Sequence record: PZ452578.1
From: a phage
Length of the DNA stretch: 64,000 nucleotides
Strand: one strand, 5' to 3'
The notes under the pieces are model-generated. The model saw only the letters and a program-made list of their open reading frames with translations. It was not told the origin of the DNA and searched no databases. A program made the translations under genes and the position numbers. This document shows positions 2,626-50,705 of this stretch, piece after piece; positions within the stretch are counted from its first letter, which is position 1; the number at the start of each line of letters is the position of its first letter.

Positions 2626-4277
<1,652 letters not shown>

Positions 4278-5619: not shown

Positions 5620-6429
5620 ATGCTTAAAGAACAACTGATTGCCGAAGCGCAGAAAATTGATGCTTCCGTTGCTCTTGATAGTATTTTCGAATCAGTTAAT
5701 ATTTCTCCGGAAGCAAAAGAAACTTTCGGCACTGTATTCGAAGCTACCGTCAAGCAGCACGCCGTTAAATTAGCTGAATCTCATATCGCTAAAATTGCTG
5801 AAAAAGCAGAAGAAGAAGTAGAAAAAAATAAAGAAGAAGCCGAAGAAAAAGCTGAGAAGAAAATCGCTGAGCAAGCTTCTAAATTCATTGACCATCTTGC
5901 AAAAGAATGGCTCGCTGAAAATAAATTAGCAGTTGATAAAGGCATCAAAGCCGAACTGTTTGAATCCATGCTTGGTGGATTAAAAGAGCTCTTTGTTGAA
6001 CACAACGTTGTTGTTCCAGAAGAATCAGTTGATGTTGTAGCTGAAATGGAAGAAGAGCTGCAAGAACATAAAGAAGAATCAGCTCGTCTGTTCGAAGAAC
6101 TCAATATGCGCGACGCATATATCAATTATGTGCAGCGTGAAGTGGCATTGAGCGAAAGTACTAAAGATCTGACTGAGTCTCAAAAAGAAAAAGTCTCTGC
6201 TCTGGTCGAAGGTATGGATTATTCAGATGCATTCTCAAGTAAATTGAGTGCAATCGTAGAAATGGTGAAGAAATCTAATAAAGATGAAAGCACTATTACT
6301 GAGAGTATAAATACTCCTGATACTGAAGCAGCCGGACTGAATTTCGTCACTGAAGCTGTAGAAGATAAAGCTGCACAGGGTGCAGAAGATATTGTAAGTG
6401 TATATGCGAAAGTCGCATCTCGTTTCTAA
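5620..6429 (+). CDS. 22: Prohead core scaffold protein gp22
   Basis: 269 aa, E/K-rich helical scaffold-like sequence, directly upstream of 23. Confidence 0.9.
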   Translation: MLKEQLIAEAQKIDASVALDSIFESVNISPEAKETFGTVFEATVKQHAVKLAESHIAKIAEKAEEEVEKNKEEAEEKAEKKIAEQASKFIDHLAKEWLAENKLAVDKGIKAELFESMLGGLKELFVEHNVVVPEESVDVVAEMEEELQEHKEESARLFEELNMRDAYINYVQREVALSESTKDLTESQKEKVSALVEGMDYSDAFSSKLSAIVEMVKKSNKDESTITESINTPDTEAAGLNFVTEAVEDKAAQGAEDIVSVYAKVASRF

Positions 6430-6447
6430 TTTTAAAGGTTAACACAA

Positions 6448-8013
6448 ATGACTATCAAAACTAAAGCTGAACTTTTGAACAAATGGAAGCCATTACTGGA
6501 AGGTGAAGGTTTACCGGAAATTGCTAATAGCAAACAAGCGATTATCGCTAAAATCTTTGAAAACCAGGAAAAAGATTTCCAGACAGCTCCGGAATATAAA
6601 GACGAAAAAATTGCTCAGGCATTCGGTTCTTTCTTAACAGAAGCTGAAATCGGTGGTGACCACGGTTACAATGCTACCAACATCGCTGCAGGTCAGACTT
6701 CTGGCGCAGTAACTCAGATTGGCCCAGCTGTTATGGGTATGGTACGTCGTGCTATTCCTAACCTGATTGCTTTCGATATTTGTGGTGTTCAGCCGATGAA
6801 CAGCCCGACTGGCCAGGTATTCGCACTGCGTGCAGTATATGGTAAAGATCCGGTGGCTGCTGGTGCTAAAGAAGCTTTCCACCCAATGTATGGTCCAGAT
6901 GCAATGTTCTCTGGTCAGGGTGCTGCTAAGAAATTCGCTGCTTTGAAAGCAAGTGATACTCTTGAAGTCGGAACTATTTACACCCACTTCTTCCAGGAAA
7001 CTGGTACCGTATATCTGCAAGCTACAGAAGTTAAGCAAATTGATACTAGTGCAACTGACGCAGCTAAATTAGATGCTGAAATTAAGAAACAAATGGAAGC
7101 TGGTGTACTGGTAGAAATCGCTGAAGGTATGGCTACTTCTATCGCTGAACTCCAGGAAAGTTTCAACGGTTCTACCGATAACCCATGGAATGAAATGGGC
7201 TTCCGTATCGATAAACAAGTTATCGAAGCTAAATCTCGCCAGCTGAAAGCTGCTTACTCTATTGAATTAGCACAAGACCTCCGCGCTGTTCACGGTATGG
7301 ATGCTGATGCTGAACTGTCTGGTATTCTGGCTACAGAAATTATGCTGGAAATCAACCGTGAAGTTGTTGATTGGATTAACTACTCAGCTCAGGTTGGTAA
7401 ATCTGGTATGACCCTGACTCCGGGTTCTAAAGCTGGTGTATTTGACTTCCAGGACCCAATCGATATTCGTGGTGCTCGCTGGGCAGGTGAATCCTTTAAA
7501 GCTCTGTTGTTCCAGATTGACAAAGAAGCAGTTGAAATTGCTCGTCAGACCGGTCGTGGTGAAGGTAACTTCATTATCGCTTCCCGTAACGTAGTTAACG
7601 TTCTGGCTTCAGTTGATACCGGCATTTCTTATGCTGCACAGGGTCTGGCTACCGGCTTTAACACTGATACTACCAAGTCAGTATTTGCTGGTGTTCTGGG
7701 TGGTAAATACCGCGTATATATCGACCAGTATGCTAAACAGGATTATTTCACTGTAGGTTATAAAGGTCCGAACGAAATGGATGCTGGTATTTACTATGCT
7801 CCATATGTAGCTCTGACTCCGCTGCGTGGTTCCGATCCGAAGAACTTCCAACCGGTAATGGGATTCAAAACTCGTTACGGTATCGGTATCAACCCATTTG
7901 CAGAATCCGCTGCTCAGGCTCCGGCTTCTCGCATCCAGAGCGGTATGCCTTCTATTCTGAATAGCCTTGGTAAAAACGCTTACTTCCGCCGTGTATATGT
8001 TAAAGGTATCTAA
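6448..8013 (+). CDS. 23: Major capsid protein gp23
   Basis: 521 aa; N-terminus MTIKTKAELLNKWKPLLEGEGLPEIANSKQ recognised as T4 gp23. Confidence 0.95.
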   Translation: MTIKTKAELLNKWKPLLEGEGLPEIANSKQAIIAKIFENQEKDFQTAPEYKDEKIAQAFGSFLTEAEIGGDHGYNATNIAAGQTSGAVTQIGPAVMGMVRRAIPNLIAFDICGVQPMNSPTGQVFALRAVYGKDPVAAGAKEAFHPMYGPDAMFSGQGAAKKFAALKASDTLEVGTIYTHFFQETGTVYLQATEVKQIDTSATDAAKLDAEIKKQMEAGVLVEIAEGMATSIAELQESFNGSTDNPWNEMGFRIDKQVIEAKSRQLKAAYSIELAQDLRAVHGMDADAELSGILATEIMLEINREVVDWINYSAQVGKSGMTLTPGSKAGVFDFQDPIDIRGARWAGESFKALLFQIDKEAVEIARQTGRGEGNFIIASRNVVNVLASVDTGISYAAQGLATGFNTDTTKSVFAGVLGGKYRVYIDQYAKQDYFTVGYKGPNEMDAGIYYAPYVALTPLRGSDPKNFQPVMGFKTRYGIGINPFAESAAQAPASRIQSGMPSILNSLGKNAYFRRVYVKGI

Positions 8014-32180: not shown

Positions 32181-32235
32181 GATGTTTAATTGCGGTACAG
32201 GTATATAATATCATATCCTGTACCAAAGTAAACAA

Positions 32236-36157: not shown

Positions 36158-36219
36158 TTCAATTTCCTCATTTGTTTTGGTAGAGCTATAATATCATAAC
36201 TCTACCGTAAAGTAAACTA

Positions 36220-45758: not shown

Positions 45759-46106
45759 TCAATACGGTTTAGCATCAAATTTTCTCTCAATTTCAGGTGT
45801 GAAATATAATTCTTTACCACGTTTGGAAAAGCGACCAATAATATGATAATTATTCTCATCAAACGTAATATTACCAATATCCATAGCTTTCAACCAAATA
45901 TCGATATTTCTATCCAGCTTTATGTCAAAATTCCAATACAGAGAACTATTACCGAAAATACTGCAAGCGGATTCAGTGAAACAACTGCTATAAATCTTGT
46001 CTTTAGGAACTACTAATTGATAGACACCTTTAATAAACTGAGGACCCTGCCACTTTGGCTGTTTCTCGTCTTTTTCTAATAGAATAGGGTAATAATTAAA
46101 ATTCAT
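45759..46106 (-). CDS. Hypothetical protein between td and frd
   Basis: 115 aa ORF flanked by AT-rich spacers; no motif recognised. Confidence 0.6.
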   Translation of the reverse strand: MNFNYYPILLEKDEKQPKWQGPQFIKGVYQLVVPKDKIYSSCFTESACSIFGNSSLYWNFDIKLDRNIDIWLKAMDIGNITFDENNYHIIGRFSKRGKELYFTPEIERKFDAKPY

Positions 46107-46125
46107 ATTTCCGCCACGCGTTATT

Positions 46126-46710
<585 letters not shown>

Positions 46711-46965
46711 TCAAAACCCCCTTTCAATAAACCATTCAGTGGCTTTATTAGCATCAAAGAATAATTCTTCATATGTCTTTTCTTTGTTTTCAAAAACTGT
46801 CACACAAACACGTTGACATTCTCCACAGTATTCTTCTGACATACTTAAAGCGTCAGAAAACATTTCTTTAAATTCATTTAAATCAGGATTATGCAATGCG
46901 TTAAAAATTGCATAATCGAATTCATCATTCATAAATTCAAATACAAAAATCATATTACCTCCCAC
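46711..46965 (-). CDS. Hypothetical protein
   Basis: 84 aa ORF with Cys pairs (CGEC...C). Confidence 0.65.
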   Translation of the reverse strand: MGGNMIFVFEFMNDEFDYAIFNALHNPDLNEFKEMFSDALSMSEEYCGECQRVCVTVFENKEKTYEELFFDANKATEWFIERGF

Positions 46966-47309
46966 TGAAAGGGGCCAGAAGCAAATCCGCTATCTTTAAT
47001 CATTTTAACTAAAGTTACCATTCCTCTGTTAACTGCTTGTGAGATTTCATCAAAAACTTCATCACTATCACCATAAAGATCGCTAAAAAGTTCTAACACG
47101 TTCTTCTGAACTTTTAATTTACAGCCAACAAATTCGCCTACAGTAAATTCGTTTCCGCCAACTCCAGCGTAAAACGTAATTACACCAGTTAATGGTCTTT
47201 CACTAGAACATAGGTCGTGTGATAAATTAATATAAGCCGTCCCGGGTGCAGTTTTAAGTTGGCAACGAATACTTACTCGAGCAATTCCAGCTACACGAAT
47301 GTCAGACAT
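46950..47309 (-). CDS. Hypothetical protein
   Basis: 119 aa ORF. Confidence 0.65.
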   Translation of the reverse strand: MSDIRVAGIARVSIRCQLKTAPGTAYINLSHDLCSSERPLTGVITFYAGVGGNEFTVGEFVGCKLKVQKNVLELFSDLYGDSDEVFDEISQAVNRGMVTLVKMIKDSGFASGPFQWEVI

Positions 47310-47319
47310 ATTATTTTCC

Positions 47320-47562
47320 TCAAACAGACTTTTTCACAATTTTCCAATCAGCTTTAAACTGCTCGACGTCAGAATGGTAAATCCAAAATCCTGCGCTTTC
47401 TCCATCCTCATAAAGAGGGCATCCATCACATTCATCTTCCCACCCCATATCGCGTAAAAGGTGTTCAGCTTTTTCAACAAGTTCAGAATCTTTACCGATG
47501 ATATTATAATACCATTTACCTCTAACTTCCGAGTCTTTGATGCTCTGACGTTGTAATCTCAT
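47320..47562 (-). CDS. Hypothetical protein
   Basis: 80 aa ORF. Confidence 0.65.
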   Translation of the reverse strand: MRLQRQSIKDSEVRGKWYYNIIGKDSELVEKAEHLLRDMGWEDECDGCPLYEDGESAGFWIYHSDVEQFKADWKIVKKSV

Positions 47563-47619
47563 TTTATTCTCCTCAAGTTGATAAGGCTATAGTATCATTA
47601 CCATAGCCTGTTGTAACAT

Positions 47620-47847
47620 TTATTTTTGGATTAAGCCCATATAAAATTTAGCATCTTCAGGATACATGCCATCACAATACTCATTGGTCATAAAACTAAT
47701 AAGGTCTTCAAGAGGACCTTGGACCTCAATTTGAATACTAAAGAATTGGGTATCTTTAATGTAAGCCATACTCAAAGAAGGATAACGATTGCGGATAACT
47801 TCGTAAGTGTATTCAAAATCAACAATATCAATATTAACCTTAGCCAT
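47620..47847 (-). CDS. Small early protein, paralog A
   Basis: 75 aa from the [13 protein letters not shown] start (RBS GAGGA); paralog of the ORF at 48334-48564. Confidence 0.7.
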
Positions 47848-47876
47848 TTTATTTTCCTCATGTAGTTGATAGGGTA

Positions 47877-47906
47877 ATAGTATCACACTACTACCCTTAC
47901 TGTAAA
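47877..47906 (-). promoter_or_regulatory. Sigma70-like early promoter (-35 TTTACA, 18 bp, -10 TACTAT)
   Basis: Minus strand GTTTACAGTAAGGGTAGTAGTGTGATACTAT upstream of paralog A. Confidence 0.6.
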
Positions 47907-48287
47907 CTACTTTTTGAAAGTTTTTCGCAAAAGTTCAATGATTTCATCTACATTGTTTTCATCTACAATGCAGTGAATTTTTGTTACGCCAGAAACCTTG
48001 TCTTTGACTTCAACTTCTTCAGAAGTCGGTTCTTTATACTCACGAAAACAATGAAATTCGTCTTCGCAAATTTCTAAAAGTCTATCTTTGAGGTAAAAAT
48101 GCTTTCCATTTGCGCATTCAATGTGTTTTACTGCTTTATATCCATTAGCGACGGAAACTTCTTTAACTTCAAACCATCCGCCATTATCTCGAATCGCTTT
48201 AACTATTGATGAATTAGAACGTGGGCTATAATTAATAAATGTATCAATAAGTCTTGGAACAAGCTCATACTTTTTACCGGTATACAT
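47907..48287 (-). CDS. Hypothetical protein
   Basis: 126 aa ORF between the two paralogs. Confidence 0.65.
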
Positions 48288-48333
48288 TACGTTTTCCTCA
48301 TTTTAATAGGGGCTGTAATAGCCCCCTCGATAA

Positions 48334-48564
48334 TTATTGTTCAATCAGTCCCATGTAAAATTCTGCGTCTTCAGAATCCATGCCATCACAATATTCATTA
48401 GCCATAAAGCGGGTAAGGTCTTCAAGAGGACCTTCAATGACAATAGAAAAATTGCAATAATTGGGATCATCATGAATACTTGTGATACTAAGTTCAGGAT
48501 AACGATTACGAATAATTTCTTCGATATATTCAAAATCAACGATGTCAATATCAACTTTAGCCAT
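48334..48564 (-). CDS. Small early protein, paralog B
   Basis: 76 aa from the [13 protein letters not shown] start (RBS AAAGAGGAA); shared motifs with paralog A. Confidence 0.7.
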
Positions 48565-48607
48565 ATTATTTTCCTCTTTAATCATCAGCAGTATTGCCGA
48601 TAGTTGT

Positions 48608-48636
48608 ATAGTACCATGGAAGAACAGGGATGTAAA
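48608..48636 (-). promoter_or_regulatory. Sigma70-like early promoter (-35 TTTACA, 17 bp, -10 TACTAT)
   Basis: Minus strand GTTTACATCCCTGTTCTTCCATGGTACTAT, just downstream of the gene 32 terminator. Confidence 0.65.
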
Positions 48637-48668
48637 CAGTTTTGTGAAAAAATTTTTGAAATAAAAAA

Positions 48669-48695
48669 GGGGACCCTAGAGGTCCCCAATTAATT
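48669..48695 (-). terminator. Rho-independent terminator after gene 32
   Basis: GGGGACC-TCTA-GGGTCCCC hairpin followed by TTTTTTAT on the minus strand. Confidence 0.85.
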
Positions 48696-48709
48696 AGTAA
48701 TATAATCTA

Positions 48710-49618
48710 TTAAAGGTCATTCAAAAGGTCATCCAGGTCCGTGTCATCAGCACTAGATGAACTGCCAGAGCTTGAGCTCATAAAATCATCTTCAGTTTTT
48801 GTATTGAAGTCATCAACATTGAATGCATCCAAATCATCAGCAACTTTATCAGCTTTCTTAGCAGCAGTTGCAGCGGCACCGCCCATCACAGCAGTTCCCA
48901 TAACTTGACCGAATTTAGTATTCAGTTCTTCAAACGATTTGAATTTATCTTTAGAAGTCATTTCAGAAAGGTCAACCATTTGTTCGAACAGTTCTTTCTG
49001 GAAAGATTCATCATCAATGTTTGGAATCGCAGATTGATTCAGGAATTTAGATTCGTCGTAGTTACTAAAACCAGAAACTTGTTTAACTTTCAGTACAAAG
49101 TTAGCACCTTCCCATGGACAAGTTACATCAACCGGAGTTTCACCCATTTCAACATCAACCGCAATCATCGCGTTGATTTTATCCCAGATTTTCTTACCGA
49201 AACGGTATTTAAATACTTTACCTTCGTTTTCTGGAGCAGCTGGGTCTTTTACTACAAGAATGTTAGCCCAGTAAGAAGTTTTACGTTTAACAAGACCGTA
49301 CTCTTTATTGTCAGTGTTGTACAAATCATTTTTACTGATGTACTGACATACTGGACAAGAATCGTAATCACCGTGGGTAGATGAACAGTTTTCAATATAC
49401 CATTTACCATTTTTCTTGAAACCGTGATTTACAAGAATTGCGAATGGTGCTTGTTCATCATTTTTAGACGGAAGAAAACGAATTACTGCTTGACCGTTAC
49501 CCGCATTATCGAGTTTCAGTTTCCACTCGCCTTTATCTTCAGAAGAAAAACCACCCTTATTTCCAGCCAGTTTAGCCATTTGTGCAGCGAGTTCAGCAGT
49601 AGATTTACGTTTAAACAT
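48710..49618 (-). CDS. 32: Single-stranded DNA-binding protein gp32
   Basis: 302 aa; sequence recognised as T4 gp32 including the zinc-site region and acidic Ser/Asp-rich C-terminus. Confidence 0.95.
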
Positions 49619-49680
49619 TTTTATTTCCTTTTAATTTAATTAACAGTTGGTGCTATGACGATGTATGACCTCATAGCTGG
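49619..49680 (-). promoter_or_regulatory. Gene 32 mRNA leader: hairpin plus AU-rich unstructured tract
   Basis: Minus strand GCUAUGA-GGUCAUACAUCG-UCAUAGC hairpin followed by AACUGUUAAUUAAAUUAAAAGGAAAUAAAAUG. Confidence 0.6.
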
Positions 49681-49700
49681 TCAGTGAGATAATTATAATC

Positions 49701-49708
49701 TATTTATA
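49701..49708 (-). promoter_or_regulatory. T4-type late promoter TATAAATA upstream of gene 32
   Basis: Reverse complement of TATTTATA about 80 nt upstream of the gene 32 ATG. Confidence 0.5.
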
Positions 49709-49716
49709 ATAAGCAA

Positions 49717-50370
49717 TTAATACTTACAAGATTTCACAGTTTCAATGAAAACACTTTTAGCTTTCTGTGAATCAATATTTAAAATTTTTCTATAAGCTTT
49801 TAACTTTATAGAATAATTATTCCAAACTAAATTATCAGTCTGTTCATCATGTTTATCAATTATATTTAAAAACGAATCAAGTAAGATAAATGTCTCAAAC
49901 GAAATTATATTCGATTGAAGCAGTTTAAAAATATAACTTGACTGAACCTTTGGATTATATTCAAAGATTTCTTTAAAAGCAGAAACTTCAACTTTCTTAC
50001 TAAAATAATAAATGTTGCGAATATCTTCTTCAAACTTAAATTTAATTTGCTTTAAGCGTCCGATATATTCACGATAAAACACAAGTGCATCAGCGTCAGA
50101 GATGTCACCAATCCAAGCATCTTGGTTAGCAACAAGATTGCTTATAAAGATTAAAGCAAGTTCCTTTAATTTATATTTTTCTGATAACTTCTGGAAAAAA
50201 TACTTATCCCTTCGCTTTTGATAAGCGGCATCAGACACCCGCATGCACCAATTATACTTAATTACATCATACTTTCCATTCATATGTTGTTTTATCATTA
50301 AGTATAATTTATAAACTGATTTACCATCAATGTATCTTTCACCACCAGCAGGCATGCGGAGTTTAATCAT
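49717..50370 (-). CDS. 59: Helicase loader gp59
   Basis: 217 aa, T4 gp59 length; position between 33 and 32. Confidence 0.88.
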   Translation of the reverse strand: MIKLRMPAGGERYIDGKSVYKLYLMIKQHMNGKYDVIKYNWCMRVSDAAYQKRRDKYFFQKLSEKYKLKELALIFISNLVANQDAWIGDISDADALVFYREYIGRLKQIKFKFEEDIRNIYYFSKKVEVSAFKEIFEYNPKVQSSYIFKLLQSNIISFETFILLDSFLNIIDKHDEQTDNLVWNNYSIKLKAYRKILNIDSQKAKSVFIETVKSCKY

Positions 50371-50705
50371 AGCAGAAAATCTAATGTATTAGTTTTTTCA
50401 CAACGAACAACAGAAGGACGTAAAAGATTTTCGTCAATGGCTTCTGACTGAATTTTTTCAATTATACCCGAAGGAATAAATTTAGCAAATTGAGTTTCAG
50501 GAATAGAGTTTTCTTCCAAGAATGCTGTCGTAGCTTCAAGATAACTCATTCCAAACTCTTCTACCATTTTTTCAATAATAAATCCATTTTCTTGACGATC
50601 AAGAAGCTTTGCTATTTCATCCTTTTCTTTCTTAATTGAAAGTTCTTTTTCTGAAAGACCGGTCTCATCGACCGGACGAATATCATTTAGAGAAAACTGT
50701 GTCAT
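50367..50705 (-). CDS. 33: Late transcription co-activator gp33
   Basis: ORF track gives 115 aa; the ATG at 50705 (MTQFSLND) gives 112 aa, the T4 gp33 length. Confidence 0.85.
   Translation of the reverse strand: MTQFSLNDIRPVDETGLSEKELSIKKEKDEIAKLLDRQENGFIIEKMVEEFGMSYLEATTAFLEENSIPETQFAKFIPSGIIEKIQSEAIDENLLRPSVVRCEKTNTLDFLL

Follow-up and report, generated by a model that had tools for sequence, protein, structure and literature searches.

The stretch of DNA analysed here (sequence record PZ452578.1; 64,000 nucleotides (nt), hereafter the window) is of Tequatrovirus (T4-like) type at the locus studied, where gene 32 (48710-49618) is 97% identical to that of T4 at the nt level. This work concerns two small, related open reading frames (ORFs) next to gene 32, referred to as frd.3 copy B (76 amino acids (aa), 48334-48564) and frd.3 copy A (75 aa, 47620-47847). 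Copy B lies where T4 carries its frd.3, between gene 32 and frd.2. It is followed by a gene of the frd.2 family (126 aa, 47907-48287; PF03197, 114 bits), which separates it from copy A, and then by copy A itself, a T4-type frd.1 (DUF5417; 47320-47562; PF17438), a DUF7247 gene (46950-47309), an 84-aa ORF and frd (46126-46707). These window genes are all on the minus strand.

A sequence-only reading of the window had described the two ORFs as a duplicated pair about 0.7 kb apart with an unrelated 126-aa ORF in between. This observation was confirmed. The homology extends over the full length of the proteins (BLASTP, 48 of 76 residues identical, 63%; E 2e-34), the copies are 714-717 nt apart from start to start, and the intervening ORF encodes an Frd.2-family protein that is unrelated to either of them. 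The genes begin and end in direct repeats, one of 101 nt (81% identity) and one of 92 nt (80%). Both proteins were assigned to PF05798 Phage_FRD3 (123.4 bits for A and 129.6 bits for B, with a cutoff of 28.1), each covering positions 1-75 of the 75 in the profile, and both matched PHROG 1764 (E 9e-27 for A and 2e-36 for B). The pair, earlier listed as being of unknown function, can therefore be placed in a named family. At the nt level the copies share 72% identity, with a synonymous divergence (dS) of 1.45 and a ratio of nonsynonymous to synonymous divergence (dN/dS) of 0.16. Both copies are under purifying selection.

Copy B is 90.5% identical to T4 frd.3 by BLASTN and 91.6% identical in a codon alignment, with a dS of 0.19; the proteins are 88% identical. 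This dS is in line with those of gene 32 (0.12) and frd.1 (0.27) between T4 and the window, so that copy B behaves as part of the backbone, i.e. as the resident Tequatrovirus frd.3. The protein was found with 100% identity in at least 12 records. All nine substitutions and the single indel that separate it from T4 Frd.3 fall within residues 30-40, the beta2-beta3 hairpin, which reads VQDSKFWSIQ in T4 and differs in copy B. The corresponding patch of about 35 nt (48444-48478, minus strand) is wholly unlike T4 frd.3 in a gene that is otherwise near-identical, and represents a micro-mosaic inside the copy B gene. Since the best match is at least 99% identical in 130 records, the hairpin of copy B is a common Tequatrovirus variant.

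The affinities of copy A are different. Its gene is 92.1% identical at the nt level to frd.3 of the Gaprivervirus TH57, 90.8% to that of VR7 and 86.8% to that of IME08, and 74.6% to that of T4 and 72% to copy B. Overall, the protein is 87-91% identical to the Frd.3 proteins of Gaprivervirus and Dhakavirus, and the DNA 87-92%. Between the window and TH57, dS is 0.26 for copy A and 0.22 for the DUF7247 gene, as compared with 1.26 for gene 32, 1.71 for frd.1, 2.65 for frd.2 and 2.82 for frd. A dS of 0.26 within flanking genes at 1.2-2.8 identifies copy A as a recent lateral import rather than a paralogue that arose in situ. The divergence between copies A and B (dS 1.45) is the ordinary distance of this gene between genera, as T4 frd.3 and TH57 frd.3 are 75% identical at the nt level with a dS of 1.79. 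In a pair duplicated within one genome, the copies would be closer to each other than to orthologues from another genus, and here they are not. Copy A shows the pattern of a xenologue, with a divergence to the donor lineage far below that of its flanking genes. No sign of gene conversion between A and B was found, their 72% nt identity being no higher than the 75% between T4 and TH57.

Gene order agrees with these affinities. T4 carries a single frd.3 at the position of copy B (order 32 - frd.3 - frd.2 - frd.1). VR7 (Gaprivervirus) and IME08 (Dhakavirus) also carry a single frd.3, and it occupies the position of copy A (order 32 - frd.2 - orf - frd.3 - frd.1). In the window both positions are filled, and copy A is the Gaprivervirus/Dhakavirus-type allele between frd.2 and frd.1.

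For mapping of the junctions, the window was aligned with VEc74, T4, TH57, VR7 and IME08, and the regulatory cassettes were additionally compared with those of SA20RB and Jbel. Up to and including CCTATCAA the window is of T4 type, which covers the 3' end of frd.2, the TTTACA element and a T4-type stem. The leader, copy A and the cassette after it are of Gaprivervirus type, and from codon 2 of frd.1, the gene that bounds the imported segment, the T4 type resumes. The upstream recombination junction thus lies in the CCTATCAA motif, at about 47865-47873, after the hairpin of the copy A cassette. The downstream junction lies at about 47559-47583, between the hairpin of the frd.1 cassette and codon 2 of frd.1, where the Shine-Dalgarno (SD) sequence and the ATG are located.

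The same site was compared among phages. SA20RB has one cassette directly between frd.2 and frd.1 with nothing inserted. In T4 the cassette is followed by an unannotated 22-aa micro-ORF, and in Jbel an 86-aa ORF is followed by the cassette. The window and VEc74 have the cassette, copy A and a second cassette. This comparison shows the window arrangement as one unit of ORF plus cassette inserted between two cassette copies. The T4 micro-ORF (L001 3516-3584, minus strand; NC_000866 about 146015-146083) encodes the hydrophobic sequence MFAPYIMAAVMLVCLYLLIKAC, has a good SD sequence (GGAGAAAAGAAAATG) and could be an unannotated membrane micro-protein. The 86-aa ORF of Jbel (L006 3666-3926) is very similar to VR7ORF254c and represents Gaprivervirus-type material in a Tequatrovirus.

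An early promoter of its own had been proposed for each copy. TTTACA/TACTAT pairs with a TG ahead of each -10 element are present upstream of both genes, and the leaders differ as described earlier. The two promoters are, however, built differently, which corrects the sequence-only reading. The copy B promoter (48608-48636, minus strand) was found by promoter scan and consists of TTTACA (48636-48631), a 17-nt spacer and tgg-TACTAT (48613-48608). It fits the T4 early consensus, including the form GTTTAC(N14)gtggTAttaT quoted in the GenBank annotation of SA20RB. It stands behind the gene 32 terminator (48659-48687, minus strand; terminator scan; fold -15.2 kcal/mol), in which an 8-bp GC-rich hairpin (48669-48687) is followed by a T-run; SA20RB carries a terminator annotation at the matching site. 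The -35 element starts about 22 nt downstream of the hairpin and T-run, with an AT-rich stretch in between. This is the classical layout of the promoter-early stem-loop (PeSL) cassettes, for which PeSL-mediated modular shuffling has been described in T4-type phages (Arbiol et al. 2010, PMC2839356; Comeau et al. 2014, PMC4122927), and the terminator hairpin is the stem-loop part of the cassette ahead of copy B.

The copy A cassette (47871-47906, minus strand; scans and fold) consists of TTTACA (47906-47901), an 18-nt spacer and TACTAT (47882-47877). Here a 12-bp hairpin (47871-47897; -18 kcal/mol, z -3.2) is nested in the promoter, with its 5' arm in the spacer and its 3' arm covering the -10 element. 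The same cassette is present at this site in T4, SA20RB and Jbel; the spacer of the T4 orthologue is N17 (N18 in the window). The second cassette, which would now drive frd.1 (47563-47619, minus strand; alignment and fold), is built like that of copy A, with a hairpin nested in the spacer and -10 region. It comprises GTTACA (47617-47612), TACTAT (47594-47589), an 11-bp hairpin (47584-47609; -14.7 kcal/mol, z -4.5) and an SD sequence, and 53 of 54 nt are identical to TH57. Its -35 element (47612-47617, minus strand) reads GTTACA in the window and TTTACA, with one T more, in VEc74 and TH57; this loss of a T may have weakened the frd.1 promoter in this phage. When each cassette was folded separately, pairing in the cassette hairpin was found to be kept across phages by three different stem sequences. 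The SD and start contexts are GAGGAAAATAAAATG for copy A, AGAGGAAAATAATATG for copy B and GAGGAGAATAAAATG for frd.1. A further 7-bp GC hairpin lies between copy B and frd.2 (48308-48326, minus strand; fold -12.6 kcal/mol, z -3.3), at a site whose homologue in SA20RB is annotated as a terminator.

A generic sigma-70 scan of the region gave no enrichment (15 sites found, 15.4 expected). The early promoter cassette consensus of the PST/T4 type is TTTACW N17 TAYWAT (PMC4122927). When it was searched as TTTACW N16-18 TAYWAT, seven matches were found in the 64-kb window as compared with 0.95 +/- 0.94 in shuffled sequences (about 7-fold). Six of the seven are on the early-transcribed strand, and two lie directly upstream of A and B. 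The annotators of SA20RB independently placed T4-early promoters at both homologous sites. Two further early-type promoters (TTTACT ... TATTAT) were noted at 36188-36216 and 32205-32232 (minus strand), each with a 12-14-bp hairpin (-16 kcal/mol) nested between spacer and -10 element, the same architecture as in the copy A and frd.1 cassettes. These nested hairpins would form in read-through RNA and cannot form in RNA started at the promoter itself. A search of 46000-50500 against Rfam at E <= 1 gave no RNA family apart from one chance match.

In T4, both the RNA and the protein of frd.3, the orthologue of copy B, are classed as early (PMC9697503 supplements). The frd.3 mRNA is also among the most abundant T4 RNAs capped with nicotinamide adenine dinucleotide (NAD) (bioRxiv 10.1101/2024.04.04.588121), which fits a transcript start just upstream of the gene. 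Early status has been shown for this T4 orthologue only; for the present phage we infer promoter use and early expression from the conservation of the promoters. Both copies would probably be made in the first minutes of infection, each via its own promoter for host RNA polymerase and its own ribosome-binding site.

The occurrence of the family and of the two-copy layout was assessed with tblastn. The FRD3 family was found at 730 places in 726 phage records, and two copies were present in four of the 726 records. A contiguous junction of frd.2, cassette and copy A was found only in phage VEc74, with 97% nt identity across the junction. The A and B proteins of VEc74 are identical to those of the window, and the genes differ by four (A) and six (B) nt, all of them synonymous, which shows that both copies are under purifying selection. 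Copy A is also present, upstream of a T4-type frd.1, on a contig from a metagenome (L010). Another two-copy record, Salmonella phage Jbel (Tequatrovirus), combines a resident copy B at gene 32 with a Mosigvirus-type FRD3 (97% aa identity to JK42). The latter is located at L012 16571-16798 (PP942088 66571-66798), the site used by Mosigviruses near the tRNA cluster. The window/VEc74 and Jbel cases together indicate that foreign alleles have been stacked at their cognate sites at least twice. The region equivalent to the tRNA-cluster site of Jbel lies outside the window, and a third FRD3 copy in this phage is possible.

A derivative of the two-copy state was also recovered. The database protein P0010 is of B type at its N-terminus and of A type at its C-terminus, and is encoded on contig L009 (Logan SRR29999948) in the order 32 - fusion - frd.1 - DUF7247 - orf - frd. 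The absence of frd.2 had been predicted beforehand. The contig aligns to positions 51500-48334 of the window and then to 47859-45165, and the switch from B to A lies within the conserved GGTCCTCTTGAAGACC...TTTATG block. Such a fusion is expected as the product of recombination between the two copies with deletion of frd.2. Two caveats apply: the arrangement was seen in one assembled contig, and the B half carries a T4-type hairpin, so that the exchange may have been between genomes. With 80%-identical gene ends 714 nt apart, the locus would be unstable, as recombination fuses the copies and removes frd.2. On L009 the fusion frd.3 spans 3587-3835. The same contig has a td gene interrupted at 6270-6494 by a 225-nt group I intron without an ORF (Rfam RF00028, 72.6 bits). 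The td gene of the window has no intron, as judged by its gap-free alignment to the two td exons of L009.

With good though not complete confidence, we interpret the locus as two alleles of a known small early gene, frd.3, stacked in one Tequatrovirus, namely the resident copy B and a recently imported copy A of Gaprivervirus/Dhakavirus type. Copy A would have come in along with the regulatory cassette downstream of it and entered the slot that Gaprivervirus and Dhakavirus use between frd.2 and frd.1. The exchange points lie inside short conserved cassettes (TTTACA...TACTAT, the embedded hairpin, CTATCAAC, the Shine-Dalgarno sequence and the ATG), which is where PeSL-mediated modular shuffling reportedly exchanges. 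As a result, each copy would keep its own early promoter and ribosome-binding site. If the hairpin of the protein sets target specificity, the two alleles may provide two specificities.

The sequence-only reading had proposed an old duplication kept under selection. Its selection part agrees with the dN/dS of 0.16. A tandem duplication in situ, in which frd.3 was doubled long ago in this lineage and the copies diverged under selection, would also account for two homologous genes in the same orientation, 714 nt apart and both under purifying selection. It is nevertheless very improbable, because the nearest relatives of copy A are orthologues in other genera (92% nt) and not copy B (72%), because the dS of copy A to Gaprivervirus is 0.26 while the neighbouring genes are saturated, and because the distance between A and B equals the between-genus distance of the gene. 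Moreover, only one copy is present in 722 of the 726 matching records.

Somewhat less improbable, yet still unlikely, is an ancestral state in which the common ancestor of the T-even phages had frd.3 in both slots, with A later lost by Tequatroviruses and B by Gapriverviruses and Dhakaviruses. The window lineage would have kept or refilled slot A, and its A allele would later have been homogenised through recombination with a Gaprivervirus. In favour of this, T4, SA20RB and Jbel all retain the cassette that precedes slot A, although the slot itself is vacant or otherwise filled in them. Each of three genera has frd.3 at a site of its own, which could stem from ancient paralogy instead of gene movement. 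A recent lateral event would still be required for the dS of 0.26, however, so that this scenario needs more steps and adds no explanation. Both slots are filled in no examined phage outside the VEc74/window group, and A and B form no deep separate clades beyond the genus split. Two short Gaprivervirus-like patches (copy A and the DUF7247 gene at 46950-47309) in a T4-like background would also be seen if a Tequatrovirus and a Gaprivervirus in a mixed lysate had been assembled into one chimeric window. We regard such an artefact as hardly credible, since VEc74, which was sequenced independently, has the same A+B layout, is 97% identical at the nt level over the junction and differs in the two genes by synonymous changes only, and since L010 and the derivative L009 come from unrelated samples. 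In addition, the junctions coincide with functional motifs, and every ORF, promoter and SD sequence is intact.

The frd.2 gene of the window is itself mosaic. It aligns well to T4 over its 3' 172 nt only (92%) and is divergent over the 5' two-thirds, with a nonsynonymous divergence (dN) to T4 of 0.27 and a dS of 0.79. The frd.1 gene is 95.5% identical at the nt level to T4 and only 76% to TH57. The DUF7247 gene (46950-47309, minus strand) is 87% identical at the nt level to Gaprivervirus TH57, with a dS of 0.22. It has no counterpart at the T4, VEc74 and Jbel loci examined, and forms a second Gaprivervirus-like patch that is split from copy A by the T4-type frd.1. In a CRISPRi-ART screen of T4, frd.3 was scored 'Not Fit' (-0.49, p 0.86) and frd.2 'Fit' (0.83, p 0.027), frd.2 being the only 'Fit' gene of unknown function in that screen (PMC11879866 supplement).

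The A and B proteins are small (8.9 kDa) and acidic, with isoelectric points of 4.27 (A) and 4.05 (B). AlphaFold 2 models had mean confidence scores (predicted local distance difference test, pLDDT) of 94.6 for A and 92.3 for B, and both show a ferredoxin-like beta-alpha-beta-beta-alpha-alpha fold. The five best Foldseek matches in BFVD were family members named '8.8 kDa protein in frd-Gp32 intergenic region' (template modelling (TM) scores 0.82-0.93), and the BFVD search returned nothing beyond family members and unnamed phage proteins. Foldseek against the PDB gave no match at E <= 0.001. One database record carries the label 'putative peptidase inhibitor', which probably reflects the generic fold and was not taken as evidence. 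NCBIfam has no model for the family, and a full-text literature search for frd.3 or frd3 found no assigned function. In a profile search of 1.84 billion representatives, eight matches were obtained. At least four of them are family members or fragments, and three are proteins of 454-2044 aa, which were taken as spurious unchecked. With eight matches in a search of this size, the family appears to be restricted to T4-like phages.

Sequence variability within the family is concentrated in the beta2-loop-beta3 segment (1.2-1.5 bits, as compared with 0.4-0.55 in beta1/alpha1), and the core of the protein hardly varies. Given the early expression, the dispensability on a laboratory host, the acidic surface, the hypervariable hairpin and the mobility between accessory slots, we infer that Frd.3 may be a small protein that binds or inhibits a target in the host or its defences, with the hairpin setting its specificity. 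A more specific version, in which Frd.3 inhibits a polymorphic host or defence protein with variable specificity, the beta2-beta3 hairpin is the surface that recognises it, adaptive stacking of alleles from two genera widens the host or defence range, and the cassettes act as docking sites for the movement of alleles, is speculative, and we hold it to be doubtful at present.

Copy B and T4 Frd.3 (NP_049853, UniProt P39508, PF05798, PHROG 1764) correspond in family, length, start context, fold, position and the promoter behind the gene 32 terminator. They differ in the beta2-beta3 hairpin, and frd.3 is single in T4 and present twice in the window. Copy A shares its slot and the following cassette with the frd.3 genes of Gaprivervirus and Dhakavirus (VR7_gp253; frd.3 of IME08 and JS98; TH57). 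In those phages, however, frd.3 is the sole copy and frd.2 is separated from the cassette by an additional ORF (VR7ORF254c), whereas copy A of the window stands in a T4-type backbone beside the resident frd.3.

As in PeSL shuffling, the window has a composite element of early promoter, stem-loop and SD-ATG in a plastic region, where one phage carries an ORF between two elements and its close relatives have just one element. The crossovers likewise lie between the -10 element and the SD/ATG, and the promoters match TTTACW N17 TAYWAT. In contrast to PeSLs, the copy A and frd.1 cassettes nest an 11-12-bp stem-loop inside the promoter rather than upstream of it, and are best called a PeSL-like variant; the copy B cassette has the upstream layout. 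The exchange seen here is also one between genera, and what it brings in is not an ORFan but another allele of a gene that the phage already had. The internal-protein (IP) locus of T4, whose shuffling is attributed to Repoila et al. 1994 as cited in PMC4122927, is similar in that related T-even phages swap small non-essential genes in a variable slot, for which a role in host range has been proposed. The IP proteins belong to the virion and are injected, and some have known anti-restriction roles; Frd.3 is not known to act on any target or to be packaged.

The family, its type of promoter and the mechanism of shuffling have all been described already, and the locus represents a rare arrangement of two alleles and no new kind of system. 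It provides a resolved natural example of cross-genus exchange of a small accessory gene in T-even phages, in which the parental types, the junctions, the two-copy product and the deletion product can all be read from the sequence. It also cautions that similar neighbouring genes do not necessarily result from duplication. As a conserved, early, acidic and laboratory-dispensable protein with one hypervariable hairpin, Frd.3 is a reasonable candidate, and a modest lead, for screens of interactions with host or defence proteins.

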